Shown here piece after piece: positions 405 through 63,326 of a stretch of DNA of 64,000 nucleotides (within the stretch, counting starts at the first letter, position 1; every line of letters starts with the position of its first letter). A program made the translations under genes and the position numbers. The DNA comes from Kiritimatiellia bacterium (GTDB lineage: Bacteria; Verrucomicrobiota; Kiritimatiellia; RFP12; UBA1067). The notes beneath the pieces are model-generated. The model did no database searches and was not told the DNA's origin. It was given only the letters and a program-made list of their open reading frames with translations. The stretch covers positions 886 through 64,885 of the forward strand of contig JAQUCE010000012.1 in the NCBI GenBank assembly GCA_028686345.1. Reading direction: 5' to 3'.

Positions 405-641
405 TCCATTTCCTTGCCTAATGACAGATGTAACCGGCAGTAAGGTATCTGTTTGAACGCGGCATGGATACATAATACCATGACTTGAAACCGTTTAAAA
501 CCTGAAAACTCATCTAAAAATCGACCTCTAAGGGCCAATTTTCATCTTTTTCAGGAGCTAAAGAATTATATATTAACATCTTGTGGAGGCTTGGCGTCGA
601 TACAACCACTGTCTATAGTTGGAGCCTTCGGCGCGGAGCAA

Positions 642-690
642 GGAAGTCGTCCGCTATGCGGGTGGCACGCAAATGATCAGCAGGGCACGC
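642..690 (+). repeat. CGCTATGCG-core hairpin module + AATGATCAGCAGGGYACGC tail
   Basis: GGAAGTCGTCCGCTATGCGGGTGGCACGCAAATGATCAGCAGGGCACGC closely matches 38576-38622. Confidence 0.8.
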
Positions 691-820
691 ACTCTAGTCG
701 GCAGGGTCAGTTTAAACTCGTCCATGATGTTGCGCTGCACAGGGCTGGTCTCTTCGTACTACTATCATTCATTTTCGTGCTTTTTATGCACATTTCATTA
801 TCACTTTTAAGGTAACTTTT

Positions 821-853
821 AAAATCCAAAATCACAAATCCAAGATCATAAAT
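821..853 (+). repeat. OL oligo-repeat (CCAAAATCACAAATCC type) abutting a gene stop
   Basis: AAAATCCAAAATCACAAATCCAAGATCATAAAT ends directly at the stop codon (854-856) of the oxidoreductase gene. Confidence 0.85.
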
Positions 854-2008
854 CTACAAACCCACCGGCCTACCCGTCCGATAGCACTCCTGGGCGGCAA
901 AGACAATCGCGTGTGTTTTAATTGCATCCGCGAGGTTGCAGTGTGACTCCACATTATTCTGAATGCAATTCACAAAGTGGTCGATCTCGCCTTGGAAGGG
1001 GTGGTGCGAGACATCGGCGCTGTCAGGACGGATCGTATCGAACTCGATCCAATCTCTCTGCTCCGGGTAACGATGCGACCAGATTTTGTTATCCTTAGCT
1101 GAGCCCTGGTCGCCGAAGATCTGTACTGGAAAACGGTAGGGCTGGATACACTCGAAGTTAACCCCCACCTTGCCGAGCACCCCGTTGGAAAATTTAACCA
1201 GAATCATCTCAACCCCAGCGTACTCCAGCGGCTCGCCTTCATGCCAGCTATTAGTGACGGGATTGTATTGCGTGGTGGAGCGCCCGCGCTTGCCACCCTC
1301 GTATGCGAAAATCTCAATTGGATCGGCTGCTTCAAACTCGCCCTGGGCTGCAAACCAGCGCAAGGCATCAATGGCGTGACACCCTGCCACCAGCATGGCG
1401 CTGCCACCTTTTGCTAGGGTGCGCCCCAGCGAAAACCCGCCCCACCAGTCGCCACTGTAGCTCTGGTAGTCGGTTTCCACACAGAAAATCTCGCCGAAAT
1501 CGCCTGCCGCGCTCATCTGCTTGAGCTTAACAAACATCGGATTCCAGCGCAGCACAAAGCTGACTACACTCTTAACCCCTGCCCGGCTGATCGCCGCCTG
1601 CATGGCGTGCAGCTCCGCCATGCTCTGCGCGGCCGGCTTCTCGATCACAACATGCTTACCAGCATCCGCCGCGGCGATCACATGCTCGGCGTGCAGATGC
1701 TGCGGCGTGCAGATTGAGATAATGTCAACCCCCGGCTGCGCCAGTGCTGCCGCGTAATCCTCAAAGCAGGGCACATCCAGCCCAAACTCGGCCGCGCGCT
1801 GGCGGGCACCCTTAACAGTGCGACTGGAAATCGCCACAACTTCAGTATTGGGGTTAGCCGCGAAAGCCGCGATATGCTGGGTTGAAACCCAGCCCGCACC
1901 GTGGATTAAAACACCTAAAGGTGTTTGGATTTTGGATTTGTGATTTTGGGTTTTGGATTGGTTGCTCATTTGTGATTTTGGTGTTTGGGTTTTGGGTTGA
2001 TTATTCAT
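854..2008 (-). CDS. Gfo/Idh/MocA family oxidoreductase
   Basis: 384-aa ORF with a Rossmann N-terminus (GVLIHGAGWVSTQHIAAF) and an EKP motif (VVIEKPAA). The first ~35 codons translate the CCAAAATCACAAATCC repeat, so the true start may be the ATG at 1969 or later. Confidence 0.85.
   Translation of the reverse strand: MNNQPKTQTPKSQMSNQSKTQNHKSKIQTPLGVLIHGAGWVSTQHIAAFAANPNTEVVAISSRTVKGARQRAAEFGLDVPCFEDYAAALAQPGVDIISICTPQHLHAEHVIAAADAGKHVVIEKPAAQSMAELHAMQAAISRAGVKSVVSFVLRWNPMFVKLKQMSAAGDFGEIFCVETDYQSYSGDWWGGFSLGRTLAKGGSAMLVAGCHAIDALRWFAAQGEFEAADPIEIFAYEGGKRGRSTTQYNPVTNSWHEGEPLEYAGVEMILVKFSNGVLGKVGVNFECIQPYRFPVQIFGDQGSAKDNKIWSHRYPEQRDWIEFDTIRPDSADVSHHPFQGEIDHFVNCIQNNVESHCNLADAIKTHAIVFAAQECYRTGRPVGL
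1921..1999 (-). repeat. OL oligo-repeat, extended copy, inside the annotated 5' end of ORF 854-2008
   Basis: GTGTTTGGATTTTGGATTTGTGATTTTGGGTTTTGGATTGG...TTTGTGATTTTGGTGTTTGGGTTTTGGG is the reverse complement of the CCAAAATCACAAATCC family. Confidence 0.85.
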
Positions 2009-2160
2009 TTTCTTGACCGGGCGGTTATTATGGATTTGGCGAATATTGCGGTGAGAGCGTCGGCTTCTTTATGTAATGGTTCGGCTAGCGCGCGATCAAT
2101 AAGCGTGATTATTCTCGAAGCAAAATTTTTGGTTCGTTCCTTCAACTCACCTTCGTTCAT
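2005..2160 (-). pseudogene. remnant of a four-helix-bundle (23S rRNA intervening-sequence family) protein, 51 codons
   Basis: Not in the track (<60 aa). Translation is MNEGELKERTKNFASRIITLIDRALAEPLHKEADALTAIFAKSIITARSRK. It keeps the N-terminal ELKERT.FA.RI and C-terminal EA.EL.AIF..SI.TA signatures, but the ~60-aa middle is missing. Its TGA overlaps the ATG at 2008 (ATGA). Confidence 0.4.
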
Positions 2161-2200
2161 GGTTAGCCCCTTCAGTATTTGGTTACAAACACCTGTCTCG

Positions 2201-2235
2201 CAAATCCAAAATCCAAAATCACAAATCCAAAATCT
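2201..2235 (+). repeat. OL oligo-repeat copy between two co-directional genes
   Basis: CAAATCCAAAATCCAAAATCACAAATCCAAAATC lies just 3' of the stop at 2241. Confidence 0.85.
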
Positions 2236-2240
2236 CTACC

Positions 2241-3518
2241 CTACACCCCCCACGGTGCCCGCATAGCGCTGACCAGCAGCTTGTTGGCCTCAGGATCATC
2301 AGGGAAGATCTCACGCGCTGGATCCCACTTCAGTTTGCTCTGCAGCTGACAGGCAATGCCGCCCAGCAGTGCGCTGGAGGTGGCGCGGTGAGCAACCTCA
2401 GCCGGGGTGATGGTCTCAGCGCGCGTTTTAACACAGTCAAAAAAGTTCTGGGCATGATCTGGACTGCGGTAAAGATGCGTCTCGCTCGGAGCGATCACCT
2501 CTTTCAGCAGCGAGTTCGGTTCAGCCTCTATCCCGCCGCGGGTAAAGATCCAACCATGCTCCCCGATGAATGTGACCCCATGCCGGTTTTTACCGGTGTC
2601 GGTCATGCTCAGCTTCACCCCGTTGACGTATTCAAAGGTTATATCAAAGGTCAGCACTGTGTCGAAAATGCCATCCTTTGGATAGACCCCCTTGCCCTCA
2701 ACCGAGATGGGGCCGCTCCGCTCCAGCCCCATTGCCCACTGGGCAATGTCAAGGTCATGTACCCCATACCCGGCGATCCACCCAGCTTTGCTGTAATCCG
2801 AGACAAAGTACCACCCACGCAGCCCGATGCCGGGGATATCCCCGATTTTTATTGATGCGTATGGAGTAACCGGCGCGGGGCCGAGCCACATGTCGTAGTG
2901 CAGCCCAGCAGGCACCTGCTCCGCCGCTGGCCAGCCAAAAGCATGTCCAGCCGGTGAGCCGATACGGATCTCTTTCAATTTACCGAGCCGTCCGTTGCGC
3001 ACCAGCTCGCAGGCGCGGTGTACGCCGCTCATGCTGTGCAGCTGGGTGCCATGCTGGAAAATCGCGCCGTAACGCTCGGCAGTGTTGACCAGCGCCCGCC
3101 CCTCGGTGATGGTGTTGCTGAGCGGCTTTTCACAGTAAACATCCTTGCCCGCTTTCATCGCCGCAATTGAGATCGGCACATGCCAGTGATCGGGGGTAGC
3201 AACCGCCACAGTGTCAACATCAGCTCTTGCGAGAAGCTCACGGAAATCCAAGTAAGCATCTTTTTCTGTTAGCCCAAGTGCTTTACGATAACTCTCCCGG
3301 TTGTTATCCTGAACATCACAGACCGCGACACCTTGCACACCTTTACAGCGCTTCATCGCTCCCCACACTCCGCCCATGCGCCCGCCGACACCGATCAATC
3401 CGACGGTAATACGGTTGGAAGGCGCGGTCGCCCCATCCTTGCCAAGCACACTTGACGGTATAATGATCGGCATCGCCAACGCGGATGCCGCGACTTTGAT
3501 AAATGCTCTTCTTTTCAT
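2241..3518 (-). CDS. Gfo/Idh/MocA family oxidoreductase with twin-arginine (Tat) signal
   Basis: 425 aa. The N-terminus MKRRAFIKVAASALAMPIII is Tat-like. Rossmann motif VGLIGVGGRMG and motif CEKPL are present. Confidence 0.9.
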   Translation of the reverse strand: MKRRAFIKVAASALAMPIIIPSSVLGKDGATAPSNRITVGLIGVGGRMGGVWGAMKRCKGVQGVAVCDVQDNNRESYRKALGLTEKDAYLDFRELLARADVDTVAVATPDHWHVPISIAAMKAGKDVYCEKPLSNTITEGRALVNTAERYGAIFQHGTQLHSMSGVHRACELVRNGRLGKLKEIRIGSPAGHAFGWPAAEQVPAGLHYDMWLGPAPVTPYASIKIGDIPGIGLRGWYFVSDYSKAGWIAGYGVHDLDIAQWAMGLERSGPISVEGKGVYPKDGIFDTVLTFDITFEYVNGVKLSMTDTGKNRHGVTFIGEHGWIFTRGGIEAEPNSLLKEVIAPSETHLYRSPDHAQNFFDCVKTRAETITPAEVAHRATSSALLGGIACQLQSKLKWDPAREIFPDDPEANKLLVSAMRAPWGV

Positions 3519-3695: not shown

Positions 3696-3745
3696 CTCCT
3701 CTGTGTCTCTGTGGTAAAAAAATCCAAAATCACAAATCCAAAATC
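3696..3745 (+). repeat. CTCTGTG-type + OL composite spacer module
   Basis: CTCCTCTGTGTCTCTGTGGTAAAAAAATCCAAAATCACAAATCCAAAATC ends at the stop of the 1016-aa gene. Same composite as 6803-6867. Confidence 0.85.
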
Positions 3746-6700
3746 AATACACCTCCAGCTCCACAATATGCATCCCTGGATTGGCGCTGTTCTTGAGCAT
3801 GGTCACACGCACATAGCGGGCCTGAACAGCATCAAGTTTAAAGCTGACCCCCTGCTCAGTGGCTGGTGCCGTGTTGTCGCTCAGGTCAGCTACCTTGCGC
3901 CAGCTCTGGTTGTCACTTGAAAGCTCCACAACATACTGGTAGTAACGCCCGTCACCAAAATAGTTAATGACCTTAATGCGCGCAAGCTTTTCAACTGCGC
4001 CGAGGTCAACACTGATCCATGCTGGCGAGTGTGCGCAGCTCCAGAAGGTGTTCAATTTGCCATCAAGGGCCAACTCGGGTTTGTGGCTATCCTGCCACGG
4101 ATGCGAAGATGTGACAGGCTTGCCTTTGGCGATGTTCACACTGGCAAGCTCAATCAAGTAATCCTCAATCTCCCTGCGCACCTTTGCATCGCGCACACCA
4201 GGCAGCGCTGTTTTAAGGGCGCGGGATTGTTCAGTCACAGAGGCGGTGTTCTTTGCCAGACGCAGCAGACCCGCGCCAGCCAGACGGTTGAGCGCGTCAG
4301 CGGGCGTCGGATCGGCAATCACTGCCAGCATGGGCTGGATGGCGCTACTCTCCGGCCAGTTGAGCAGGGCGCGCACAGCAGCTTCGTCTTTCGATTGACT
4401 GACAAAGGCCAACGCAACCTCGCCGCCAATCTCCGGCAGAGCACTGATCATGGCGGTGCGCGCCTCGCCGGTCAGTTTGGGTGCGTCCTGCAGCATTGCT
4501 GCCAGGGGCGCATCCGGCGTGCGTTTGCAGATCAGCACCATGGCCGCCGCGGCCGCGGGCTTGACTGCATTGTCACCATCGAGCAGAATCTGGCGCAGTG
4601 CCGGCAGATGCGCGGCGGTTCCATTGCTGCGTATAACCCCGATCGCCGCTGTGGCAACACCGACGATCGGCGAGCTGGCCATCTCCAGCATCAGCTCTAG
4701 TGCGCCAGGGTCGGCGCGGTCAGCAATCAACTTCAGCGCAATTTGAGATAGTTTTACGTCCTGGCTGGCAGCCGCTCCAGCCAGCACATCAAACACCCCT
4801 ACGCCACTCAGCTGCGTCAGCGTGAGCTTGGCCTCAGCACCAGTCGCGCCGCCCGCCGCAACCATTTTCAACAGAGGACGCACCGCAGCCTGCCCCCCTA
4901 TTTCCCGAAGAGCGCGCACAGCTGCGAGCCCAAGCTCCGGGGAATAGTGAGCTAATAGGAACACGAGCAACTTTTCGCTCTCCTTGATCGCTCTGTCGCC
5001 CAAAGTTGTAACAACCGCCAGCCGGGCGCTCTCAGGCAGAGCGTCTAACCTGGCACTCAGATCGAGCAACATCTCTTTGTTAAGCAAGCGCATGGCCGCC
5101 GCACCCCCGTTTTGAAGCTGCGCATCCGTGGAGGTTAAGACAGAGTAAATCTCGTCGTCGGTCGCCTGCGAGCAGCGGACCAGAGCAATCAGGGCTGCGC
5201 TCCTTTGCGCGGCACTGGCCGTGGAGCCCGGCTTCCAAATTGTGCGGTAAATGTTGAGTGCAACCGGATCTTGTCCCAGAGCATCAGCGCAGGCCAGGCG
5301 CGCATCAATAAGCTGCTCCTGCAGCTCTGGAATCTGCTTGAGTTCGCTCAGTGCCTGGGCCGCCGCGGATGTGCCCAGTTTGCCAATGCCGTTGATCGCC
5401 GCCGCTGCAACAATCTCATCGCCCCCAGCGGCCCTAGTTGCCAGCGCAGGCAGGGCAGCCTCATCCTTGCGCGCTCCCAGGGCTTGTATCACGGCTGCGG
5501 CACGTTCAGCAGGGAGCGTGGGCAGAGTGTTGATCATGGTTGCGGTGGCAGCGGCACCCGGAAGAGCGGCAATCGCGTCGAGCGCCTGCATCCAGGAGTT
5601 CTGCGCAAGAAAGGCGGCAGACAGGGGCAGCGAAGCTTCGCTGCCGCAGAGCTGTAGCTGGCGAAAAGCCCAGCACTGGAAATCAGATGACGTCGCGCCT
5701 GCTGACAGGATGGCAAGCAAACGTTGCTCCGAGTTGTGCCTGTCCTGGACGGGCTGCTCGCGGATAGCCTGCTCAACCGCTGCCAGCAGCGTGCGATCAC
5801 TGCCATATTGGTAGCCAGCCATTTTCAACAGAGGATCAGCCATGTCCCCGGCGTAACTGGAAAAAAGTTTTTCCGGTGGAGTTGCGAGCCCATCACCGCT
5901 TCTGATGATGACGCGGAAGGCGAGCTCCAGCGGCTGGCCGGGTTTCAACGCATAAGCCATGCCTGCGGCGGGAAAGGTTGGCTGCAGCCAAGGCAGATCT
6001 TCAAAGCTCACCCAATCACCTGGGTAGTGCGGATTGGCGGGGTGTTGCAACAGAAATATGCCGACTGTGTTTTGCCCTTTTGGCGGCTTGCCGCTCAGCT
6101 CAGCCCAGGCGCGGCAGGGGTACGCGCCGGGTGAATCACGGTGCCGACTGATTTTCAGGTCGCTGAACCGCGACATGCGAAAGTTGAGGCCGCCATACGA
6201 TGTCCGCTGACGCCGTGCAAGGGTGATGCTGTTCTGCAGGGCCTCAAACTTAAACTGAAAGTCAATGACGCGCAGACCATCTTTTGCCGGATAAGCGGTA
6301 ATGGTTGCGAACTCACGCACGATCTCCTCGGTGTCGCCCCATTTCCAGATATTCTCGGCTGTGATGATCGCCGAGTTCTGATCCGCGCTCTGTTTGAGTA
6401 TTTTGACCGGGCGGGCGAAGAGCCCCTGCAGCGCGTGCAGGTCGCGGGTCTCGCCCTTATAGGTCACCTCCGGCCAGGCCCAGTAGATGCCGCGGTGGTG
6501 GGGGTGATCCTTGGAAAAATCCTCGGTCAGGATCTCGCCTGCCGCCCCGTAGAGCGGGTGCACGTAGTTGCCGCGGGCAACCGCGTATTTTCCGCCCACA
6601 CCCTCGGGCACTGGGACTGTGCCGAAGTTATAGGTCAGCACTTGCTGGCCGCTCTCATTAATTGTGTAGCGTTGCGTGGCCTCATCGACCTTGATCGACA

Positions 6701-6802: not shown

Positions 6803-6867
6803 CTCCTCTGTGTCTCTGTGCCTCTGTGGCAAAAAAACCAAAATCACAAATCCAAAATCACAAATCC
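6803..6867 (+). repeat. CTCTGTG-type + OL composite spacer module
   Basis: CTCCTCTGTGTCTCTGTGCCTCTGTGGCAAAAAAACCAAAATCACAAATCCAAAATCACAAATCC fills the 80-bp spacer between the URO-D stop and the next start. Confidence 0.85.
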
Positions 6868-8271: not shown

Positions 8272-8310
8272 GCCTGACTCCTGACTCCTGCCTCCTGCCT
8301 CCTGACTCCC
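8272..8310 (-). repeat. heptamer tandem array (GNCAGGA)x5, inverted relative to 10326-10392
   Basis: GCCTGACTCCTGACTCCTGCCTCCTGCCTCCTGACTCCC is the reverse complement of GTCAGGA/GGCAGGA units. Confidence 0.85.
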
Positions 8311-10325: not shown

Positions 10326-10392
10326 GAGACAGGAGTCAGGAGTCAGGAGACAGGAGACAGGAGTCAGGAGTCAGGAGACAGGAGACAGGTGT
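10326..10392 (+). repeat. heptamer tandem array (G[AT]CAGGA)x9 with 28-bp higher-order period
   Basis: GAGACAGGAGTCAGGAGTCAGGAGACAGGAGACAGGAGTCAGGAGTCAGGAGACAGGAGACAGGTGTC lies immediately after the prepilin peptidase stop. Confidence 0.9.
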
Positions 10393-10437
10393 CCCGTCCT
10401 ATGATAGGTTGTCACTTTAAAAAGAAGCAACAAGGAA

Positions 10438-18752: not shown

Positions 18753-18768
18753 GCTGCTCGGTGTTTAG

Positions 18769-18862: not shown

Positions 18863-18870
18863 GATCATTA

Positions 18871-48310: not shown

Positions 48311-48349
48311 CTTGTAGGATTGATGGGAAGCATGTTTGCGGTAGGTTCT

Positions 48350-48460
48350 TGAAAAGTGCGCCATGGGGTGTAGCAGCCGCTCTGCGAGCGGCAGACTGCA
48401 GCAGGCTCTTGAAAGGCGCGCCCTGGGGTATAGTGTTGCTTCTATGAAGCAATTTGCGAA
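48350..48460 (+). repeat. partial Composite B (GTAG hairpin + collapsed GTTGCTTC/GAAGCAAT hairpin)
   Basis: GGGGTGTAGCAGCCGCTCTGCGAGCGGCAGACTGCAGCAGG...GAAAGGCGCGCCCTGGGGTATAGTGTTGCTTCTATGAAGCAATTTGCG. The large loop seen at 38895-38945 is reduced to TAT here. Confidence 0.8.
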
Positions 48461-48493: not shown

Positions 48494-48710
48494 AGTACCT
48501 CTTTTCTTAAATCCTATCATGTTTGCGAAAGATTTTGCGACTTTTGCGTTTTTTTGCGGCTAAACATAGCGAAGCAAAGGAAAAAAGGAATAGCCGCAAA
48601 AAGGCGCAAAAAGGCGCAAAAGAAAGAACTTCCATCTTTTCTATGCAACGCATAGCGTTGTTGACTAAACCAGCGGGGCATATCACACAATTGTTCAATG
48701 AGAGAGAAAT
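48494..48710 (+). repeat. P126 repeat interrupted by an 88-bp hairpin insertion (about 48533-48620)
   Basis: The two halves match 18971-19096. The insert contains TTTTTGCGGCTA...TAGCCGCAAAAA inverted arms and GGCGCAAAA direct repeats. Confidence 0.9.
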
Positions 48711-48754
48711 CATTAATAATTTTTAGTCGCCTAAGCGCCTAAACAGGAGTGCCG

Positions 48755-50422: not shown

Positions 50423-50430
50423 CGAAGGGC

Positions 50431-50530
50431 AAAACATGTTGTCGTGAGGTAATCTTAATCTCAATCCTAATCTCAATCCTTATCTCTTTCGACAGCCACA
50501 GGCAGCCGTTGTTTGATTGGGATTACGATT
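50431..50530 (+). repeat. N module copy
   Basis: AAAACATGTTGTCGTGAGGTAATCTTAATCTCAATCCTAATCTCAATCCTTATCTCTTTCG...TTGATTGGGATTACGATT is co-linear with 18871-18971. Confidence 0.8.
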
Positions 50531-50763
50531 TAAAGCGCAATATTCGCGGAGAGTCGCGGGGAAAAAATTGGTTGCGGCTATGCTGCGCTAGGTTCTTTGT
50601 GGTTTCCAAAATAAAGTGCAACCGTTTTGACCCATATGTCCGGTGATGCGCACTTGCGGAGCAAGGAGGTCAGTCGCTATGCGGCTGACTATACTGCGTG
50701 CCAGTCATGCGCGGGCGATCCACAGTCGCCCGCACAGCGAACGACTTTCTTGACCCGCGCCGT

Positions 50764-50880
50764 GGTTTCCAACCGGACATGACGATTGAAAATCGGAGCT
50801 ACGTTGCTCCCGCACAAACGGCTCCATCTCTTTAACTCGCGCACTCGCGCACTTTTCCACTCCGCGCCCGGCGCGGATTT
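50764..50880 (+). repeat. T-flank repeat, left copy (117 bp)
   Basis: GGTTTCCAACCGGACATGACGATTGAAAATCGGAGCTACGTTGCTCCCGCACAAACGGCTCCATCTCTTTAACTCGCGCACTCGCGCACTTTTCCACTCCGCGCCCGGCGCGGATTT is a direct repeat of 51769-51892. Confidence 0.85.
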
Positions 50881-51160
50881 AGTAGCTTAAAGCCTCAAAA
50901 ACACGCTCAAACTTCTGAATGATAGCGGCGACCTCCCGCACACACACAGTGTCTTTTGGTTGCCACTGAGACACTGAGGAGCAACGAGGGTGAGCTTGGT
51001 TGTTTATAGGGTAGAAAAATAGAGGGGTAGAAAAAATCTGTTGCAGCCTGGTAGATTTATGGTACAAACACGGCATCCTTTCTAACATCCATATCGTCTT
51101 TGCACTGTCTTTGCGCTTGATACTCGCGCAACATAGCTGTAATATAGAACGATTCTTTTA

Positions 51161-51247
51161 GCCAGAGTGGTGGAATGGCAGACACACCGGACTTAAAATC
51201 CGGAGCGGGTAAACCGCGTGGGGGTTCGAGTCCCCCCTTTGGCACCA
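51161..51247 (+). tRNA. tRNA-Leu (anticodon UAA), CCA encoded
   Basis: GCCAGAG acceptor stem pairs with CTTTGGC. Anticodon arm is CCGGA-CTTAAAA-TCCGG, giving anticodon TAA. It has a long variable arm (GCGGGTAAACCGCG), a T arm GGGGG-TTCGAGT-CCCCC, and a terminal ACCA. Confidence 0.9.
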
Positions 51248-51472
51248 TTTATAAGCCGTTTCAGCAGCCTATGATTTAATAAGGCAGTTTAAAAATAAAG
51301 AGAATCATTGCGCTGTTGTCAAATGGAGTAAGCGCGGAAGGAGGTCAGTCGCTATGCGGCTGACTAAACCGCGCACCTGATGGCTCGAATGCCGCCCGTA
51401 GTCGCCCGCGACTTCCTTGCTTCGCGCCTACCGCGCGACCTGCAAGCTTCATCACAGTGGAAACGTGTAGAG

Positions 51473-51807
51473 TTGGCGGCCCTTGTCCGGCATAGTTCCG
51501 CAATGCCACGGCGTAGCCCCGCTTGCGGGCGAAGCCGGGTTGCGGGACGACGACGGATGAGCCAAACAAAGATAATGAAATCCAATGGCGCGCCTTTGAC
51601 GAACAATCGCCCGGCATCCGCTAATTGCTTCTGAGAAGCAACTCTACATCCCAGGGCGCGACTTTCATATGCCTGTTGCAAAATGCCGCTCGTAGAGCGG
51701 CTACTACACCGAACGGCAACCCTTGCGTTCCGCAGTGCAATCAACGGCGCAGCGGCTCCAGTAGCTCCGGTTTCCAACCGGACAGTTTGATTGTAAATCG
51801 GAGCTAC
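51473..51807 (-). repeat. Composite B, copy B4
   Basis: Its reverse complement is co-linear with 38629-39070, with a single GTAGTAG-hairpin unit, a small-loop GTTGCTTC/GAAGCAAC hairpin and a ~38-bp indel in the tail. Confidence 0.85.
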
Positions 51808-51892
51808 GTTGCTCCCGCGCTAACGGCACCATCTCTTTAACTCGCGCAATAACGCACTCGCGCACTTTGACACTTCGCGCCGAGCGCGGAGT
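51769..51892 (+). repeat. T-flank repeat, right copy (124 bp)
   Basis: Direct repeat of 50764-50880 with a small insertion. It ends 20 bp before the sulfatase stop. Confidence 0.85.
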
Positions 51893-51911
51893 TAGCCCTT
51901 ACCAAAGTACA

Positions 51912-56816: not shown

Positions 56817-59495
56817 CTATGTTTTCCCTAAATAACCGATCGACATGTTCTCCGCCACTGTGTCGTGGGGGATCACTCGGTAAATCCATGGCTTGCCGCC
56901 ATGCTGGGAGGCATACGCTGTCGCATTCCCGCACCACCTCTCGGCAGCATCTCTCTTGGCAACCACATCAGCATCATTCAAGGCCGAACGCTTCTTGGGC
57001 TCCAGCATATAGATGGCATCGGCTGTCTCTGCAACAAAGTCGGGCTGATACTCGGGGTGCTCGGCACCCAGTTTGTAGAATATCTGGAATTGACCTTTGG
57101 CGGGTTTGAACCATTTCTCCGCCTCCCGATCCAGGATAACCGCGAGGATGCGTTCAGCTTCAGAGTCGAATTTCTGCACGGAATAAAGGCAGCGCCTAAA
57201 GCCGCCGAAGAGATACTTTGCCATGTTGCTCTTATCTTTGGGGGAGACCTTGAAATCCAGCGGCTCCTCGGTGGCTGAGGCCGTATACGCGCTGGACTTC
57301 AGCTCAGTAAAGCCCTTGCTGATCACCACCTCGTATTCAACCTCTGCATCTTCCCAGTAGTGCTCCTGCATCTGAGCATGGATAAAAGCGGCGATCTCCT
57401 TCTGATGCTGCCAGAGAACTTTAGCGCTCTCCTCTTGGCTGAGATAGCCCCTGAAATGCGCTACTGTCTGGCTGGCAAGCCCGTAAAGCAGATCAGCGTG
57501 CTGCTCGTAATCAACGTCGTTGAAATCTTTGAGACCGTTAACAATGTAGTTCTCAAGACGCTGCTCTTTACCTCCCCCTTTTCCCAGGCCGATCACCTCG
57601 GCTTCGCCTGTTCTCAAGACCTGCCGCCAAAGCTCCTCTGAGATCGGCTGATATCTGAGACCAAAGAGATTCAGATCAAAGGCCCTGAAACCGGATTTTA
57701 CCTCGCCCTTGGGTACCACCAGGATGCGGGGAATGTCAATGGTTTGCTGAATAACCAACTCAGCGGTTTTTTTCACGATAGCCGCGATGTCAGGCTCTTC
57801 CAGAACGCCTTCCAGCTCCATCTGCGACGGGGTCAGGTATGCGGCGACCTCCCGCACCACCTCTGCCTGAACCTCGGGAGAGACAAGGTAGCTGGTTGTC
57901 GGCACCCGCCCCGGCTGACTCTCCAACCTCCTGATGCAGGCGTAAACAGCCTGGGCCACTCGCTGATCAGCAGGCGATGAAAAAACCGCGTTTTCCGAGC
58001 TCACAGCTACCTTTGTTGAGTCAGTGGCCTGCGGTGGAGCGACACCAAGCTGGCTGGCCAGCGTACTTTGGGAGACAACTGTCTTTGTCTTGCCCTCAAT
58101 CTCATCCGGATCAAGCACAACGCTCTGCATACGGATCTGCGAATCAGGCCGATTCGCCTCGTCCACAATCTCCTGAAATCTGTCGTGCGCCACAATGCTG
58201 AGACGGTCTATTGCCGGAACTCCCACGCGCTTGCCATAGGGCAGACGCAGGCCGCGGCCAATGGATTGCTCGATCAGTATCCGGGCGTTTGCAGCACGCA
58301 GCGGGATGATGGTGTAGAGGTTGGTCACATCCCACCCCTCTTTGAGCATATTCACATGGATCACGATCTCGGTTGGTTCGTCAAAATGCTCGACTTTAAG
58401 CAGACGATTAATCATCTCCTCTTCGTCCGCACCGGTTTTACTGGAGTCCACCTGGATGACTTTTTCCTGATAACGACCTCCGAAAAAGTCAGCGGACTCG
58501 ATCATAGCTTTCAACTGTGCGGCGTGGGTTGTATCTCGAGCGATGATAAGGACAAAGGGCTTGACGATCTCACGGTTTGTTTCGCGGGCGTATGTTTCGA
58601 GCTGCACCTTGGTCTGCTCGTGCAGACGAATGCCGTCTCCGAGCTTCAGCTCTTCGATCGCCTCCCTGCTCATGCCTTCTGGATTGAAGTTCTTGCGCGT
58701 CACCACAGCAGGCTCTTTTACAAAGCCGTCGGCAATGGCGCGACCAAGCGCGTAGTCGTAGATCACATTGTTGAACGGCACTGCCCCTTTTGCGGTTTCC
58801 ACAAACGGCGTGGCAGTCAGCTCCAACCCGAGAATCGGCTTCAGTTCGTTGATGGCGCGCACCCCGGCGCTGGCGCGATAGCGGTGGGACTCGTCCATCA
58901 GGAGCACCAGATCCGGCAGCGCGGCGAGGTATTCAAAGTAGCTCTCTCCAATATACTCTGAAAGTCGCTTGATCTTCGGCGCTTTACCGCCGCGCACCTC
59001 TGAGTTGATCTTGCTGATGTTGAAAATATTAATCTTACAGCGCAGCACAAGGTCAAAAAGCGTGCTTGTTTTGGATTCGTAGTCATCCCCGGTAATGATC
59101 TCCGGCGCCTCCTGCGCAAACTCGGCAATGCCTTTAAAGACATATTTGGGCGTGTTGGGCGTAAAGTCAGCAATCAGCTTGTTGTAGATCGTCAGGTTCG
59201 GCGCAAGCACAAAGAAATTGTTGAGGCCATGGGCAAGATGCAGATAGGTGACAAAAGCGCCCATCAGCCTGGTCTTGCCAACCCCGGTGGCAAGGGCGAA
59301 GCAGAGCGAGGGAAACTCCCGCTCGAAATCGGTCACCGATGGGTATTCGCTTTGAATCAACTCCAAGGCTTCCGCCACTACCGTCGATTTACTCGGCACC
59401 ACGATCTCGGTGATGCGGTCGAGAATCTCAAGCGACCGGCGTTGCGGCGGGCGCAGACTGAGCCGTCCGGAAATAGAGTTTACGTGAGGGGTCAT
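56817..59495 (-). CDS. res: Type III restriction endonuclease, Res subunit (SF2 helicase + C-terminal nuclease)
   Basis: 892 aa. Walker A is LATGVGKT and motif II is LLMDESHR. Helicase motif VI-like is QSIGRGLRL. The C-terminal PD-(D/E)xK candidate is QPDFVAETADAIYMLEPKK. Its start overlaps the rhuM stop (ATGA at 59492-59495). Confidence 0.9.
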   Translation of the reverse strand: MTPHVNSISGRLSLRPPQRRSLEILDRITEIVVPSKSTVVAEALELIQSEYPSVTDFEREFPSLCFALATGVGKTRLMGAFVTYLHLAHGLNNFFVLAPNLTIYNKLIADFTPNTPKYVFKGIAEFAQEAPEIITGDDYESKTSTLFDLVLRCKINIFNISKINSEVRGGKAPKIKRLSEYIGESYFEYLAALPDLVLLMDESHRYRASAGVRAINELKPILGLELTATPFVETAKGAVPFNNVIYDYALGRAIADGFVKEPAVVTRKNFNPEGMSREAIEELKLGDGIRLHEQTKVQLETYARETNREIVKPFVLIIARDTTHAAQLKAMIESADFFGGRYQEKVIQVDSSKTGADEEEMINRLLKVEHFDEPTEIVIHVNMLKEGWDVTNLYTIIPLRAANARILIEQSIGRGLRLPYGKRVGVPAIDRLSIVAHDRFQEIVDEANRPDSQIRMQSVVLDPDEIEGKTKTVVSQSTLASQLGVAPPQATDSTKVAVSSENAVFSSPADQRVAQAVYACIRRLESQPGRVPTTSYLVSPEVQAEVVREVAAYLTPSQMELEGVLEEPDIAAIVKKTAELVIQQTIDIPRILVVPKGEVKSGFRAFDLNLFGLRYQPISEELWRQVLRTGEAEVIGLGKGGGKEQRLENYIVNGLKDFNDVDYEQHADLLYGLASQTVAHFRGYLSQEESAKVLWQHQKEIAAFIHAQMQEHYWEDAEVEYEVVISKGFTELKSSAYTASATEEPLDFKVSPKDKSNMAKYLFGGFRRCLYSVQKFDSEAERILAVILDREAEKWFKPAKGQFQIFYKLGAEHPEYQPDFVAETADAIYMLEPKKRSALNDADVVAKRDAAERWCGNATAYASQHGGKPWIYRVIPHDTVAENMSIGYLGKT

Positions 59496-60520
59496 TCCTG
59501 CCCTCCTTTTAAATATTTTGCAAAGGCCAGATCGAAGTTAGACAAATAATCTCGGTCCTGCCGCACCCGAAATTTGTCATACTCGACATGTGCTTTTGTT
59601 ACAGCCATCTCATGAGAGATTGTGCCTGCATGCTCCAGCAACTCCTGATCGTTAAACTCCATAAAACGTCTCACCTGTTCCAGCCAGTCCTGCATGGTCA
59701 TCGCTTGCCGATTCAGTGCCCGAAACTCTGCGTTATCAATGAACATAACCACCAGTCGGTTCAATCGATCCAGCTCTTTTTCATTCAGGTAGTTCTTGGC
59801 GATGCTCACATCACTTTTCAGCACCTTGCCCTTCGGTGAATTTTTCCAGGTAGTCAGCCCCATATAGGGTTTCTCACTATCTGCCCGATCATACACGATT
59901 TCCGCTGCGGTTTGTCCTGTCGTGGCATAATGAATCTGATTCTGGACAATCTTATAAAACTGCTTGGTCTCCTCGCTGTCGCTCCGGTAATCGCTGCTGC
60001 ACTGCTCAAAAATATCCGCGATTTTTTGATAGACACGCCGCTCGCTGGAACGGATCTCTCGGATACGTTCCAGAAGTTCGTCGAAATAGTCCTGTCCAAA
60101 GGCACGCCCGTTCTTGAGCATGTCATCATTGAGCATAAAGCCCTTCACCATAAACTCCCTCAGGGTATTCGTTGCCCAAATGCGGAAGTGCGTCGCTTTG
60201 ATGGAATTCACGCGATAGCCAACAGCGATCACTCCGTCCAGGTTGTAATATTCGAGCTGGCGGGCAACATCTCGCGTACCCTCCTGTCTAACTGTTTCCA
60301 AAATGGAAACAGTTGCTTCCCGCTGTAGCTCCCCAGAAGCAAAGATATTGGAAAGGTGCTTGGCAACGGCTGGCACCTGCACACCAAACAGCTCCGCCAT
60401 AGCCTTCTGCGTCAACCAAAAGTTATCCCGTGCGAAAAGCACGTCGACCGTCACCTTCCCGTCATCCGTTTGATATAGAACGATTTTAGACGGCTGCGAA
60501 TTCTGAAGTTCATCGCTCAT
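59492..60520 (-). CDS. rhuM: RhuM family (virulence-associated) protein embedded in the RM operon
   Basis: 342 aa: VDVLFARDNFWLTQKAMAELFGV...YNLDGVIAVGYRVNSIKATHFRIWATNTLREF...SSERRVYQKI, the conserved RhuM core. Confidence 0.85.
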   Translation of the reverse strand: MSDELQNSQPSKIVLYQTDDGKVTVDVLFARDNFWLTQKAMAELFGVQVPAVAKHLSNIFASGELQREATVSILETVRQEGTRDVARQLEYYNLDGVIAVGYRVNSIKATHFRIWATNTLREFMVKGFMLNDDMLKNGRAFGQDYFDELLERIREIRSSERRVYQKIADIFEQCSSDYRSDSEETKQFYKIVQNQIHYATTGQTAAEIVYDRADSEKPYMGLTTWKNSPKGKVLKSDVSIAKNYLNEKELDRLNRLVVMFIDNAEFRALNRQAMTMQDWLEQVRRFMEFNDQELLEHAGTISHEMAVTKAHVEYDKFRVRQDRDYLSNFDLAFAKYLKGGQE

Positions 60521-60531
60521 TACTCACCTCC
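60518..60531 (-). promoter_or_regulatory. Shine-Dalgarno plus stop/start overlap coupling mod to rhuM
   Basis: The reverse strand reads GGAGGTGAG-TAATG. A strong SD sits inside the 3' end of mod, and the mod TAA shares its last A with the rhuM ATG. Confidence 0.7.
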
Positions 60532-62139
60532 CTTGTCAAAGAGTTCCAGTTGCCCTTGTTTCGGCGGGGCGGCTGGCAGGTTCTCCACTTTGAGGCTGTA
60601 GTCGTCTTTGCCCCATTCGCAGCGGTTGAGAACAGCTTTGGGGATCTTTTTAACTGTCAGGTTGGGGTAGCCCTCCTGACTGCCGCGGAAGGAGGTGCAG
60701 ACCACAAGCAGAGTGCGACCAAGGCCGACTTCGTCGCTGAGCTGTTGAAGCTGGGCATGGGTGAGGCTGGCAGTGGTGACATAGATAAAATCCTGCTCAG
60801 TGGAGTGGCCGTGCTGCCAGTAGAGGCTATCGCTCGGCGCATAGGTAAAGCCCTCCAGCTTGCAGAGCGCCTCGGCCAGCATGGCAGCGTTGTACTCCTT
60901 GCTGATCACCCAGTTATCCCACTTATCCTTTTCCAGCAGCGAGGGCGCAAGCTTGTAGTAGCGAAAACCGCCGCCCCCCTTCCAATTAACCGCCTTGGTG
61001 ATGCCGCCGGGATCTTCGCCGTCGATGACTTTCTTAAGGCGCGGAATGCAGTGCGTGTGGCAATGCTCTCCGAGTTCGATTCCAATCCAGCGACGCCCCA
61101 TCTTGTGGGCAACAGCGGCGGTTGTACCGGAACCGAGGAAAGAGTCGAGCACAAGGTCACCGGGGTTGGTGGCAATCTCTAAAACCCGAGATAGGAGTCG
61201 TTCAGGCTTAGGGGTATCGAAGATATCGGTACTATTAAGCGCAATCGTTTCCTTTTTCGCTTCTTGCGTATTGCCAACCGATTCGTGAAGCCAGATAGAT
61301 TGAGGTATGATTCCGTTCTTAACATCACTCAAAAATCGTTTAATTCGCGGGACACCTTTCCCGTCTACACCAAACCAAAGTCTATTATCGGCAATCAGTC
61401 TTGGTACCTCTTCTTTATTAAACCTCCATGAACTGCCAGGTGGAGGCAATACTTTTCTGCCAGCCGGAGTGGTAATTTCATAATAAGCATATTCTCTGTA
61501 CTCCCTTCTGAGAGAATCTCCAGAAGTCCACGGTCCACGCGGATCATTATCTGGATTTTTGTACCGCGAATCCATTTCAGCGGTTCTCGGAAGCAAGTTT
61601 AATTCTAGAGCTGAAATGTCCTTAGCGATCACGAGAATATGATCATGATTGTTGTCTATGAATTTTGCATCGTTTTGAGGAGAGAATTTCTTCTGCCATA
61701 TCCCATTTGAAACAAAATTCCTCCTCCCAAAAATCTCATCACATAGAACCTTGAGATAATGCGCCTCGTTGTCATCAATCGTGATCCATAACGATCCTTC
61801 AACTGAAAGCAATCGTTTAATAAGCTCAAGTCGATCACGCATCAGCGACAGCCACAACGAATGCTCCACCCCGTCATCATAGTGTTCAAATGCTGAGCCA
61901 GTATTATACGGAGGGTCAATAAACACACACTTGACCGTACCAGCGTAATCCTGCTCCAGGGCTTTAAGGGCGAGCAGATTATCACCGAAGATCAGCTTAT
62001 TATCGAATATATCGCGCTTCCCGACGTGCTGCAAAGCATGGTAGGATTTTTTTGGATCTTCGACCAGAATGCGCGGTTCCAGCTGCGCTCGGTTCTCCTT
62101 GCCGATCCAGGTCAGTTCAAGTTTTTGTTTCCGAATCAT
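60520..62139 (-). CDS. mod: Type III RM DNA methyltransferase, Mod subunit (beta-class N6-adenine/N4-cytosine)
   Basis: 539 aa. Motif IV is VFIDPPYNTG, upstream of motif I DSFLGSGTTAAVAHKMGRRWIGIE (beta-class order). Its TAA overlaps the rhuM ATG (TAATG at 60518-60522). Confidence 0.9.
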   Translation of the reverse strand: MIRKQKLELTWIGKENRAQLEPRILVEDPKKSYHALQHVGKRDIFDNKLIFGDNLLALKALEQDYAGTVKCVFIDPPYNTGSAFEHYDDGVEHSLWLSLMRDRLELIKRLLSVEGSLWITIDDNEAHYLKVLCDEIFGRRNFVSNGIWQKKFSPQNDAKFIDNNHDHILVIAKDISALELNLLPRTAEMDSRYKNPDNDPRGPWTSGDSLRREYREYAYYEITTPAGRKVLPPPGSSWRFNKEEVPRLIADNRLWFGVDGKGVPRIKRFLSDVKNGIIPQSIWLHESVGNTQEAKKETIALNSTDIFDTPKPERLLSRVLEIATNPGDLVLDSFLGSGTTAAVAHKMGRRWIGIELGEHCHTHCIPRLKKVIDGEDPGGITKAVNWKGGGGFRYYKLAPSLLEKDKWDNWVISKEYNAAMLAEALCKLEGFTYAPSDSLYWQHGHSTEQDFIYVTTASLTHAQLQQLSDEVGLGRTLLVVCTSFRGSQEGYPNLTVKKIPKAVLNRCEWGKDDYSLKVENLPAAPPKQGQLELFDKGGE

Positions 62140-62293
62140 TTGATTTATTTGTTTTGTTGCACTAAAAAATTACAATCGCGTTAGCTTTTTCCACTAGCAG
62201 GTGTTTAAGGTAGGTAAGTTGTTATTCTCTCAAATGCTGCTGTGAAAAACAAGACGTTTAGATAACCATCAGCAATTCGAATTATGGTTGAAG

Positions 62294-62385
62294 ACACGCT
62301 AAAGCGTGAACTACATACCCCTGAAACCGTATGTAGTTCACGCTTTAGCGTGTTTTCTGAACAGGTACACGGTCACAATTAGAAT
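62294..62385 (+). repeat. HP25 element: perfect 25-bp-arm hairpin + tail
   Basis: ACACGCTAAAGCGTGAACTACATAC-CCCTGAAACC-GTATGTAGTTCACGCTTTAGCGTGT, then TTTCTGAACAGGTACACGGTCACAATTAGAATT. Confidence 0.9.
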
Positions 62386-62516
62386 TTTTGCAAAACACAA
62401 CGCACACGCGTTTACAAGAACATGCCAAATCACACTAAGCAGCTTTCCGTGTCCGGCGCAACTGCGAAGCGTGGAGACGGAAGCCTGCTCCAGGGCTGGT
62501 TATAGAGCTGTTAATG

Positions 62517-62614
62517 TAAAAGTGATAATGGAGTAGTGCAAGCATCTTGCTTGCAGAAAACATTTTCATTCAAGCTGTAAGCTTGAGGTTAAACTCATCT
62601 ATGCTGGAGTGAAG
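62517..62614 (-). repeat. H2 module with head; right boundary of the RM cassette
   Basis: The reverse complement reads CTTCACTCCAGCATAGATGAGTTTAACCTCAAGCTTACAGCTTGAATGAAAATGTTTTCTGCAAGCAAGATGCTTGCACTACTCCATTATCACTTTT. Confidence 0.9.
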
Positions 62615-62674
62615 AGGTCGCGTATTTTGTGCGGAAGCAACGGACGTTGCGTGACTAGGATTTGATTTAGTTCG

Positions 62675-62815
62675 GGAAAGGCGCGCCCTGAGATGTAGTG
62701 TTGCTTCTACCGTGTCCGCCGTAGCCGTGGCGAAGGAGGATGAAGCAATTTGCGAGCGCTGGGTGGTTTTTCGTCAAAGGCCGTCATGGGATTTCATAAT
62801 CTTTGTTGCAACCTT
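62675..62815 (+). repeat. partial Composite B (GAAAGGCGCGCC + GTTGCTTC...GAAGCAAT hairpin + tail fragment)
   Basis: GGGAAAGGCGCGCCCTGAGATGTAGTGTTGCTTCTACCGTGTCCGCCGTAGCCGTGGCGAAGGAGGATGAAGCAATTTGCG...CAAAGGCCGTCATGGGATTTCATAATCTTTGTT. Confidence 0.8.
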
Positions 62816-62876
62816 TGTCGGATTTGCATCGCTGAACAAAAGCTGCAAATCACTTAAAATAATAAAGGACATCTAA

Positions 62877-62984
62877 ATGGCAAAACTATTAAACCCACCA
62901 GTACCGCTCGTATCACAAAAAACCGGACGGAATGAGTCTTGCCCTTGCGGGAGCGGTAAAAAGTACAAAAAATGCTGTGGTTGA
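62877..62984 (+). CDS. SEC-C metal-binding-motif miniprotein (35 aa)
   Basis: Not in the track. Translation is [35 protein letters not shown]. The last 20 aa reproduce the SecA C-terminal zinc motif (GRN[16 protein letters not shown]) apart from a Ser for Pro and CCG for C-H-G. AAAGGA lies 8-13 nt upstream of the ATG. Confidence 0.45.
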
Positions 62985-63326
62985 GTTTAAATATGAGCGG
63001 AGCTATTTCCGTTTGACTGCCTGATGCAGTGGCAAAAAACTCATCTACGCCCCCTTTTCGTGCTTTTCGTGGTTTTCGTGGTTTAAATTGAGGGTAGAAA
63101 AATAGAGGGGTAGAAAGAGATTTACAGCGTAGAGAACCATGCTTAAAAACAACGCAGCGCACCCTCTGCGCAGCTCTGCGCGAGATATTCACGCCCCGCA
63201 CCTTGCAAACTTCACGCAATGTTGAAACTTGCAGGGCTGGCGGGACATGTCCGGCGCAGTTCCGCCATGCCGCAGCGCAGCACGCGGCCCCGCCCGCATC
63301 ATCATTTTCATGAACGCCTCAACGGC

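Follow-up and report, generated by a model that had tools for sequence, protein, structure and literature searches.

Probable REP-type hairpin repeats of many families in the intergenic spacers of a Kiritimatiellia genome

The locus and its repeat population

We analyzed a 64,000-nt stretch of contig JAQUCE010000012.1 (here, the window) from a member of the Kiritimatiellia, within the Planctomycetes-Verrucomicrobia-Chlamydiae (PVC) superphylum, with a focus on the short hairpin modules that recur in its intergenic spacers and that are very probably repetitive extragenic palindromic (REP) elements. The phenylacetate-CoA ligase (PaaK) encoded here is 97% identical at the protein level to its homologue in a Kiritimatiellia metagenome-assembled genome (MAG), and its best named relatives all belong to this class. 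The genes are ordinary chromosomal ones, including GH95 and GH127 glycosidases, a sulfatase, Gfo/Idh/MocA oxidoreductases, UvrA, RNase D, DsbD, a flavorubredoxin, a SulP transporter, and a type III restriction system, and the sole known RNA gene is a tRNA-Leu (51161-51247). The first-pass annotation of this DNA had proposed a REP system mobilized from elsewhere, with no transposase in the window, and none was found when the larger genes were all scanned against Pfam or NCBIfam and six-frame open reading frames (ORFs) against a hidden Markov model (HMM) of REP-associated tyrosine transposases (RAYTs).

Comparison of the window with itself by BLAST gave 58 repeated stretches, summing to 5375 nt and nearly all intergenic. 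As a comparison set for match density we used 977 kb (ca. 1 Mb) of related Kiritimatiellia loci. At least three matches in this set were found for 39.0% of intergenic bases versus 0.28% of genic bases, and at least 10 for 20.7% versus 0%. The repeats are thus enriched between genes, as expected in the earlier reading, and are also not confined to the window, being shared genome-wide with a sister species (see below). That almost every spacer is modular was too broad a claim, since modules were detected in 17 of the 27 spacers of at least 20 nt, the other 10 being mostly short; nevertheless, 17 of the 18 spacers that had been listed by position do carry shared modules. The remaining one (36239-36433) has GGTTAGG and GTCGATTCA tandem repeats in their place. 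Module coverage within the affected spacers ranged from 16% to 94%, and divergent (promoter) spacers were filled as well (32% coverage).

We counted at least 15 module families, in both orientations and varied combinations, in agreement with the 12 to 15 or more estimated previously. The spacers at 18753-19596, 26264-26628, 38042-39183, and 50423-51911 are composed of common blocks in differing order and orientation, and some multi-module blocks were duplicated whole, namely, 19196-19381 as a 186-nt inverted copy at 26331-26516 and 19290-19450 at 38629-38794. The units are short imperfect palindromes of about 20 to 40 nt that form stem-loops, as judged from hairpin lists and the folding of doublets, and they are dispersed, extragenic, and present in high copy number, both in the 977-kb set and elsewhere (at least 59 and at least 120 stretches for two of the families, see below). 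They occur as single units, inverted doublets resembling REPINs (REP doublets forming hairpins), tandem arrays, and mixed clusters that combine REP types in alternating orientation with recurrent linkers, that is, mosaics like bacterial interspersed mosaic elements (BIMEs).

The family that the first-pass annotation had placed foremost, with about 20 copies by eye, has the core CGCATAGCG (CGCTATGCG on the other strand). This core was found exactly 22 times in the window, versus 0.80 ± 0.93 expected, a number reached in 0 of 100 shuffles. Twenty of the copies are intergenic, and the two genic ones (2260 and 29141), without complementary flanks, look like chance matches. All the variants quoted before were recovered for this and the other hairpins (GGTCAGCCGCATAGCGACTGACC, GTCGCCCGCATAGCGGACGAC, TCCACCGCATAGCGGCGGA, CAACGCATAGCGTTG, GTGTAGTAGCCGCTCTACGAGCGGC, and GTAGCTCCG...CGGAGCTAC). 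Within the family, the core CGC-TAT-GCG is invariant and an outer GTC...GAC is common, while the stems vary yet pair, as GTCAGT/GCTGAC (type A), ATCCGC/GTGGAT and GTCCGC/GTGGAC (type B), GTCGTC/GGCGAC (type C), or CAA/TTG (type D). Types A and C pair up as inverted doublets, and type B forms tandem arrays of 34-nt units that end in a single inverted one. Some type C copies carry a 5' GTAG (18770-18796, and in degenerate form near 51400). The members located in the window were as follows (z, folding score against shuffled sequence).

646-666, plus strand: type C-like unit
18776-18860: A/C inverted doublet, with C hairpin 18776-18796 (minus), GTAGTA directly 5' of this type C unit, and A hairpin 18840-18860 (plus); z = -5.0
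19027-19049, minus strand: type D unit (CAACAACGCTATGCGTTGCATAG), in a 96-nt block recurring at 48619-48714
27530-27661: type B array of three tandem 34-nt units (CATCCACCGCATAGCGGCGGATATACTTTGCAAA), then an inverted unit at 27641-27661; z = -10.6; period 34, 2.8 copies, 100% matches in Tandem Repeats Finder
31852-31914: type B inverted pair, 31852-31872 (minus) and 31894-31914 (plus)
38515-38599: A/C inverted doublet, A 38515-38535 (minus) and C 38579-38599 (plus); z = -3.8
40874-40894, minus strand: type A unit
43128-43245, minus strand: type B array of 3.5 tandem 34-nt units, with stem variant TCCTC/GTGGA (T.T mismatch replacing G.T)
45924-45944, plus strand: single type B unit, GTCCTC/GTGGAC variant
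48641-48663, minus strand: second copy of the type D unit
50669-50745: type A unit 50669-50689 (plus), with a degenerate type C partner with core CGCACAGCG at 50725-50745 (minus)
51344-51364, plus strand: type A unit, just 3' of the tRNA-Leu

A CRISPR array was considered for the 34-nt arrays and rejected, as the sequence between repeats is identical, with no unique spacers and no cas genes.

The claim that pairing is kept across different stems was borne out by covariation among 42 distinct copies from ca. 1 Mb. Stem positions of the CGCTATGCG family paired in 81.5% of cells, compared with 71.4% ± 1.5% after shuffling and 29 to 56% with slid partners, and two-sided changes were found in 39 cells versus 20.2 ± 3.7 (39 reached in 0 of 500 shuffles), counts that amplified subfamilies enter repeatedly. 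On the CGCTATGCG strand, one inner stem position is a G.T wobble, which becomes C.A on the opposite strand. This asymmetry brings up the possibility that the hairpins are mainly RNA-level cis elements (3'-end stabilizers, attenuators, or processing sites) in which pairing is selected and spread is secondary. Along these lines, the imperfect position holds GU in 14 and UG in 6 copies at one pair and UG in 8 at the next, all on one strand, and as RNA this strand is fully paired, whereas the other contains C.A mismatches; tandem or convergent genes border many of the units, and G-T pairing in other REPs has been interpreted likewise (PMC3733652). However, both orientations occur within one spacer and, counted by hand, the likely transcript would carry the wobble strand in about 8 copies and the mismatch strand in about 5, so that the G.T-paired strand had no orientation bias with respect to transcription in the window. 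The filling of divergent spacers also speaks against this explanation, as does the lack of T runs after the units and of any Rfam family match, since only the tRNA-Leu passed the gathering score of the Rfam covariance models, with nothing else than sub-threshold chance matches to microRNA hairpin models. We consider a primarily RNA-level origin unlikely; moreover, an RNA role would be compatible with REP mobility, given that classical REPs do both.

A second group consists of hairpins headed by GTAG, also recognized in the first-pass annotation. In the window, GTAG was followed by a hairpin within 0 to 3 nt in 24 of 81 intergenic cases (30%) versus 8 of 203 genic ones (4%), against a background of 3.8% for all tetramers. 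We distinguished at least six such families, the tag being present in G1 to G6 and in G8. G1 (GTAGTA-GCCGCTC-tac-GAGCGGC) has eight copies in the window. Throughout the 1 Mb, its stems were about 90 times GTCGCTC/GAGCGAC and about 105 times GCCGCTC/GAGCGGC, with only six hybrids, which again indicates that pairing is kept; an additional subfamily there has GCGCCTC/GAGGCGC. G2 (GTAG-TGCAAGCA-tct-TGCTTGCA) has five exact copies, usually partnered by an inverted GTACC-TCAAGCT-tcc-AGCTTGA hairpin. G3 (GTAGC-TCCGGTT-tcc-AACCGGA) was found as inverted doublets in every case, and G4 (GTAGTT-CACGCT-tt-AGCGTG) forms two doublets. Two further GTAG families (G5 and G6) and a long inverted repeat bearing GTAGCTATTGCGAAGCC were also detected. 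The inverted doublets that had been expected as the mobile, REPIN form are indeed present. In G3, G4, G1, and the A/C doublets, two inverted REPs with short conserved spacing fold together into a single long hairpin (z between -3.8 and -12.4, with equally good folding in 0 of 200 shuffles). AT-rich linkers recur beside the hairpins, among them F12, whose copies usually adjoin type B arrays. The tagged units and linkers are located as follows.

19210-19295: G1 doublet with GTAGTAG tags inward, GCCGCTC type 19210-19232 (minus) and GTCGCT type 19273-19295 (plus); z = -5.2
19404-19450: G3 REPIN-like inverted doublet, the partner with compensatory G>A and C>T; z = -5.6
19452-19531, minus strand: G2 composite, G2 19493-19515 and inverted partner hairpin 19457-19478; z = -5.7
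21155-21177, plus strand: G1 unit, PaaK-ACT spacer
26417-26502: G1 doublet, 26417-26439 (minus) and 26480-26502 (plus), within the 186-nt inverted copy of 19196-19381
28368-28469, minus strand: G2 composite, G2 28409-28431 and partner 28373-28394
29912-29990, plus strand: G2 unit 29962-29984 with a conserved left arm of ca. 50 nt
38288-38489: long inverted repeat, arms with GTAGCTATTGCGAAGCCTGAAG at 38303-38324 (minus) and 38453-38474 (plus)
38629-38677: G3 doublet, GTAGCTCCGATTTCCAATCGGA ... CGGAGCTAC
38789-38906, plus strand: two tandem 60-nt units with G1-type hairpin ends (GTAGTAGCCGCTCTGCGAGCGGC at 38843-38865)
39034-39051, minus strand: G5 (GTAG-TTCCGC-tt-GCGGGA), with a related copy at 51513-51530 (plus)
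39100-39175, plus strand: AT-rich linker F12 (CAACTTTTTGCAAAGAACAATTAATTGTT), with further copies at 26548-26576, 27467-27495, 31788-31816, and 43075-43103
40476-40533: G4 doublet, the G4 unit in both orientations
40570-40649, plus strand: G2 unit 40621-40643 with the left arm present; degenerate G2 at 40901-40924 (minus)
48370-48392, plus strand: G1 variant GTAGCAGCCGCTCTGCGAGCGGC
51685-51707, minus strand: G1 unit, exact consensus
51761-51806: G3 doublet, with a related copy at 50764-50806
62295-62352: G4 doublet; z = -12.4
62463-62591, plus strand: G2 composite, G2 62533-62555 and partner 62570-62591

Some modules have conserved arms of 50 to 100 nt around the hairpin. When 25 G2 copies were aligned with their flanks, a core of ca. 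40 nt was followed by neighbors that change from copy to copy and by arms of variable extent, and no terminal inverted repeats or target-site duplications were found in this alignment. Therefore, the surroundings of G2 are a mosaic and not a miniature inverted-repeat transposable element (MITE). The G2-containing modules (19452-19531, 28368-28469, and 62463-62595) have a G+C content of 38 to 44%, compared with 55% in genes and 48% in intergenic DNA, a weak hint of import from a donor of low G+C content.

Relatives, strains, and other phyla

In the sister MAG SO_2017_CLC_139, whose coding DNA is about 89.5% identical to the window, the window modules are present in different orders, and orders also differ on other metagenome contigs. 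A degenerate G1 pattern matched at least 120 stretches in a metagenome scan, most of those listed from JGI (Joint Genome Institute) metagenome Ga0265294, which is taken to be the source of this MAG; in the sister species, G1 forms 35-nt arrays.

Presence/absence polymorphism, which had been suggested as a check, was found at one orthologous spacer, that between PaaK and ACT. In the window, this spacer contains a 162-nt block (20962-21122) plus a G1 unit, as it does in a same-strain Logan contig, while a relative (L002, 89.5% identical) has the G1 unit only and a more distant one (L004) has neither. A relative's diacylglycerol-kinase locus (L084) was tried as an empty site and set aside, as its spacers are short and module-free but synteny is broken.

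These data bear on whether the repeats might be fossil REPs, their mosaic produced solely by recombination, gene conversion, and slippage after transposition had ceased. The whole-block duplications described above would fit such a process, and so would the tandem arrays with 98 to 100% identity and the lack of a cognate RAYT for the window families in the 1 Mb of related loci. Yet many unlinked loci in the two species carry exact or nearly exact copies, in spite of their divergence in coding DNA, and the strain-level difference in the PaaK-ACT spacer points to recent movement, so we regard purely fossil repeats as improbable.

Assembly was another concern, given that the window is a metagenome-type contig. 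The short-read Logan contig L001 (1.7 kb, same strain) aligns to 19511-21162 with 99.5% identity, and the alignment ends inside repeat modules, between a G2 composite and a G1 hairpin, as expected for multicopy DNA. Assembly of this genome from short reads thus seems to stop at the repeats. Nonetheless, repeats created by misassembly or chimerism are scarcely conceivable, because the same modules appear in similar contexts in independent JGI, ENA, NCBI MAG, and Logan assemblies and L001 itself matches the window almost perfectly.

The G2 family extends much farther. Its 23-mer GTAGTGCAAGCATCTTGCTTGCA matched at least 59 stretches in a scan of one genome per species. Among the matches listed, about 20 were in Kiritimatiellia MAG SO_2017_CLC_139, three in Kiritimatiellae MAG GH19, about 33 in Anabaena sp. 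FACHB-1237, and two in a "Candidatus Brocadiia" MAG, with others in Dolichospermum, Anabaena CRKS33, and an uncultured cyanobacterium MAG. All 23 letters are identical between the window and the cyanobacteria and Brocadiia MAG, while the flanking arms are wholly different between phyla. The G2 stems have many variants in cyanobacteria and essentially one in Kiritimatiellia. The Brocadiia copies lie within a duplicated noncoding stretch of ca. 720 nt with no obvious transposase. In Anabaena sp. FACHB-1237 (L061 3480-3680, and L013, L033, and others), we observed G2 within an element of ca. 110 nt bounded by TAAGCTG...CAGCTTA, sometimes in 70-nt tandem arrays, a MITE-like carrier unlike the Kiritimatiellia context.

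REPIN-RAYT systems are generally held to be passed on almost strictly vertically. The presence of an identical 23-nt REP at many loci in Nostocales, Kiritimatiellia, and a planctomycete of the class Brocadiia, with all flanks different, would be explained if a REP/RAYT replicator had recently passed from one phylum to another and then multiplied in its new host. We put this forward tentatively, as a possibility that we would not favor on present evidence; if true, it would contradict near-strict vertical inheritance. A plasmid or phage origin was rejected, since spacer 38042-39183 had no match in PLSDB and the G2 23-mer had none in IMG/VR.

Transposases and the proposed mode of spread

Within the 1 Mb of Kiritimatiellia-type loci we found one RAYT gene (L160, 3821-5128, minus strand, on contig Ga0265294_10000066, taken as part of MAG SO_2017_CLC_139), so that a RAYT is present in the lineage. 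Its core scored 86.6 bits with NCBIfam NF047646 (REP_Tyr_transpos, cutoff of 80), its sole PDB match was Escherichia coli TnpA-REP (4er8, E = 3.8e-9), and it has both the HUH motif and the catalytic Tyr in YxxxNP. An E. coli YafM sequence served only as a tblastn lead, and the conclusions rest on the Pfam, NCBIfam, and PDB matches. The gene lies between sufS- and sufU-like genes, as read from the translated flanks, and its open frame crosses five 69-nt REP units, giving 435 aa with a repetitive N terminus. Both flanks consist of GGGAGCGCCGACGTCCTCGTCGGC arrays, with a degenerate G2 unit just upstream, and further metagenome assemblies contain a 76%-identical RAYT homologue that the GGGAGCGCCGACGTCCTCGTCGGC hairpin also flanks. 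An intact G2 unit followed by the leader sequence shared with this gene is present at four more loci (L006, L014, L022, and L024); in L014, a REP doublet comes after G2 and leader and a RAYT gene is missing, which would fit either loss of the gene or copying of the flank.

The protein search with the Kiritimatiellia RAYT yielded more than 5000 relatives. Of the top ones, P0241, P0243, and P0244 are located within or next to genes for type I restriction-modification or Bro-N, and P0245 is flanked by GGGAGC-type REPs; no window family was seen at these four loci, the flanks having been read at the DNA level for P0245 only. As a separate observation, RAYT-like Y1 genes 79 to 81% identical to that of L160 (L184 to L187, L193, and L194) are likewise in or beside type I restriction-modification genes, directly 3' of hsdS in L184 to L187 and L193, with hsdM next in L184 and L186. 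Upstream of the one in L194 there is only a Bro-N gene, and some of the genes carry the JGI annotation "type I restriction enzyme R subunit/putative DNA methylase."

G2 is the sole window family tied to RAYT genes, and this is in cyanobacteria, not in Kiritimatiellia. The RAYT of Anabaena CRKS33 (L047, 149 aa), 32% identical to that of L160 over 109 aligned residues, scored 109.6 bits with NF047646 (cutoff of 80) and likewise qualifies as a RAYT protein; the best 120 matches in its protein search were cyanobacterial only. The gene is followed by GTAGTG-stem-ATCTT-stem hairpins with four different stems. Furthermore, the peptide ASILLA (GCNAGCATCTTGCTNGC), found in many cyanobacterial RAYT homologues, is the in-frame translation of a G2-type hairpin, and in L192 the hairpin DNA was confirmed in-frame within the RAYT gene (1760-1830) as well as flanking it. 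Since these hairpins both flank RAYT genes and sit in-frame inside them, in cyanobacteria the G2 family belongs to the REPs associated with RAYTs. The in-frame insertions of the own REP number one or two per cyanobacterial RAYT gene and lie between the HUH motif and the next conserved block; the ASILLA-bearing proteins were P0146, P0163, P0169, P0176, P0209, P0222, P0231, P0238, and P0240.

Two other candidates were discarded. The Y1_Tnp gene beside the PaaK relative in L002 (2199-2744) turned out to be an IS200-like gene in truncated form, situated in a tRNA/integrase island and without flanking window modules; it covers only positions 2 to 60 of the 121 in Pfam Y1_Tnp and reaches 29.3 bits with NCBIfam transpos_IS200 (cutoff of 55). 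A weak match to the RAYT HMM in L022 (E = 0.007) had no Pfam match and reads as the antisense frame of a transporter gene. In L002, we also observed a Y1 fragment near an hsdS fragment (2199-3329) and, beside the truncated gene, ca. 300 nt (2761-3054) that are self-complementary by eye with nested inverted repeats; this stretch is called as a 97-aa ORF with no Pfam match and may be a structured RNA or an insertion sequence (IS) end.

The truncated gene in the sister genome raises the alternative that the modules are miniature IS200/IS605 derivatives, with ends like those of palindrome-associated transposable elements (PATEs), or other MITEs, moved by an ordinary multicopy IS transposase and not by a domesticated RAYT. 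The modules with conserved arms would also suit such elements. On the other hand, the G2 alignment has variable, mosaic-like arms and none of the MITE termini, and no intact IS200/IS605 or DDE transposase was found in about 1 Mb of related loci. The GTAG tag with a short hairpin is, moreover, the signature of RAYT substrates and not of IS ends (PMC3733652). We therefore give little credence to an IS or MITE origin.

In our preferred explanation, the spacers probably hold a multi-family population of REP-type elements, mobilized in trans by RAYT on single-stranded DNA and then reshuffled. The mechanism is modeled on REP/RAYT and IS200/IS605 systems. Each unit would fold to a hairpin on the single-stranded DNA at replication forks, where a RAYT-type Y1 HUH transposase encoded elsewhere in the genome would recognize the tag and the hairpin shape, not the stem sequence, and would cut and rejoin the strand, so that units or doublets are copied to other intergenic sites. 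Clusters may then grow by repeated insertion beside existing units, by slippage (the 34- to 35-nt tandem arrays), and by recombination between copies, and their reshuffling would yield the mosaic. That a RAYT mobilizes the window's own families, in trans and by a single-strand mechanism, is what we infer from this model.

Several observations weigh against this explanation. The ca. 1 Mb of Kiritimatiellia DNA from related loci yielded no RAYT with a window family at its flanks, and GGGAGCGCCGACGTCCTCGTCGGC, the REP that flanks the sister RAYT, has zero copies in the window. The RAYT link in the first-pass annotation is thus indirect, even though the REP/BIME anatomy fits. There is a single clean orthologous presence/absence case, from which neither an insertion target nor an excision footprint can be defined. 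Arrays of tandem units arranged head to tail are seldom seen in the REP families described so far (PMC3733652). Finally, types A, B, and D of the CGCATAGCG family have no GTAG tag, so the GTAG signature applies to G1 to G6 and G8 and not to most of this family. Because it combines a conserved loop and closing pairs with free stems and a fixed G.T/mismatch position, the CGCATAGCG-core family may be an untagged REP class, perhaps read by a different protein via the loop instead of GTAG.

The species with described GTAG-tagged REPs number >80 and represent 8 phyla, Cyanobacteria, Planctomycetes, and Verrucomicrobia among them (Di Nocera et al. 2013, PMC3733652). The same survey reported complementary stem changes among subfamilies, common G-T pairing, dimers in head-head, tail-tail, and head-tail arrangement, several families in a single genome, repeat-specific REPtrons, and families common to distant organisms, together with the cyanobacterial families GTAG-12, GTAG-15, and GTAG-16. 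PVC REPs on record come from Opitutus terrae, "highly enriched" in GTAG REPs, Rhodopirellula baltica, and Planctomyces, and several REP families with several RAYTs per genome are known from O. terrae, R. baltica, and Stenotrophomonas maltophilia (PMC3733652). Among Cyanobacteria, RAYTs of Group 4 are frequent (Bertels et al. 2017, PMC5581495).

With these systems (E. coli TnpA-REP, Pseudomonas REPIN-RAYT, Stenotrophomonas SMAGs, and GTAG-1 to GTAG-24), the window shares the 5' GTAG with a 5- to 9-bp stem and a 2- to 5-nt loop, compensatory-stem subfamilies, G-T pairs, extragenic location, coexisting families, a RAYT in the lineage, and head-head or tail-tail doublets 1 to 100 nt apart that fold as long hairpins. 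It differs in that 34- to 35-nt head-to-tail arrays are common and that no RAYT flanked by its own families was seen. At least six GTAG families plus other modules in 64 kb is at the high end of the described range, and the "unusual diversity" claimed earlier is therefore relative, multi-family genomes being already known (PMC3733652). The cyanobacterial GTAGTG-stem-ATCTT-stem REP, which has its own RAYT, includes a high-copy Anabaena sp. FACHB-1237 unit identical to G2 GTAGTGCAAGCATCTTGCTTGCA, but its arms differ entirely and no cyanobacterial-type RAYT was found in the Kiritimatiellia DNA examined. Enterobacterial BIMEs are similar in being clusters of a few REP types in alternating orientation with recurrent linkers and in having doublet partners with different stems (A/C and G1 GCCGCTC/GTCGCTC here, compare the Y and Z REPs of E. 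coli), while the window has many more unit types and linkers and its sequences are unrelated. BIME classes are partly defined by the binding of integration host factor, gyrase, or Pol I. Intergenic mosaics of short modules are also formed by Neisseria intergenic mosaic elements (NIMEs), whose bounds are dRS3 repeats used for phage integration, and by Correia elements, a kind of MITE that has terminal inverted repeats and TA duplications; in the window we saw neither the dRS3 bounds nor the terminal-repeat and TA features.

GTAG REPs, multi-family genomes, and PVC REPs are thus already published, and the window is a further case of a known REP type. It adds the host class (we found no REP description for Kiritimatiellia), the number of coexisting families, the frequent tandem arrays, and the untagged CGCATAGCG-core family, as well as one REP exactly identical across three phyla, a hint of cross-phylum transfer. 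To our knowledge, REP/REPIN systems have been studied almost solely in Proteobacteria. With its many coexisting families, its tandem arrays, and a REP exactly shared with cyanobacteria, the Kiritimatiellia lineage offers a test bed for whether RAYTs recognize tag and hairpin shape or sequence and whether REP/RAYT replicators can pass between distant hosts. There are practical consequences too. The repeats take up roughly 40% of the sequence between genes and seem to be break points in short-read assemblies, which matters for binning, and frames running through REP arrays, such as the 435-aa frame of the L160 RAYT, can mislead gene callers and affect the annotation of the group.

Other repeats and genes in the window

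A second class of intergenic repeats, distinct from the hairpin modules, consists of short tandem heptamer or nonamer arrays, which are reminiscent of cyanobacterial short tandemly repeated repetitive (STRR) sequences.

822-854, 1924-1959, 2202-2234, 3720-3746, and 6834-6867: AAATCCA arrays
8273-8309: CCTGACT array
10326-10393: GAGACAG/GAGTCAG array
36240-36320: GGTTAGG array
36364-36395: GTCGATTCA array
48274-48311: GGACGAATG array

The AAATCCA arrays are situated around the starts of four consecutive minus-strand genes in the oxidoreductase cluster, and the GGTTAGG run is G-rich and telomere-like. By eye, small ORFs were seen within two "spacers" (28527-28700 and 62876-62984), their products being a zinc-ribbon-like peptide with CxxC...CxxC and a 35-aa peptide with a C-terminal SEC-C-like motif; if real, they reduce the noncoding part of both spacers. 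The type III-like restriction system (56817-62139, minus strand) comprises a res helicase, a RhuM-family gene, and an adenine methyltransferase, with the RhuM gene between res and mod.

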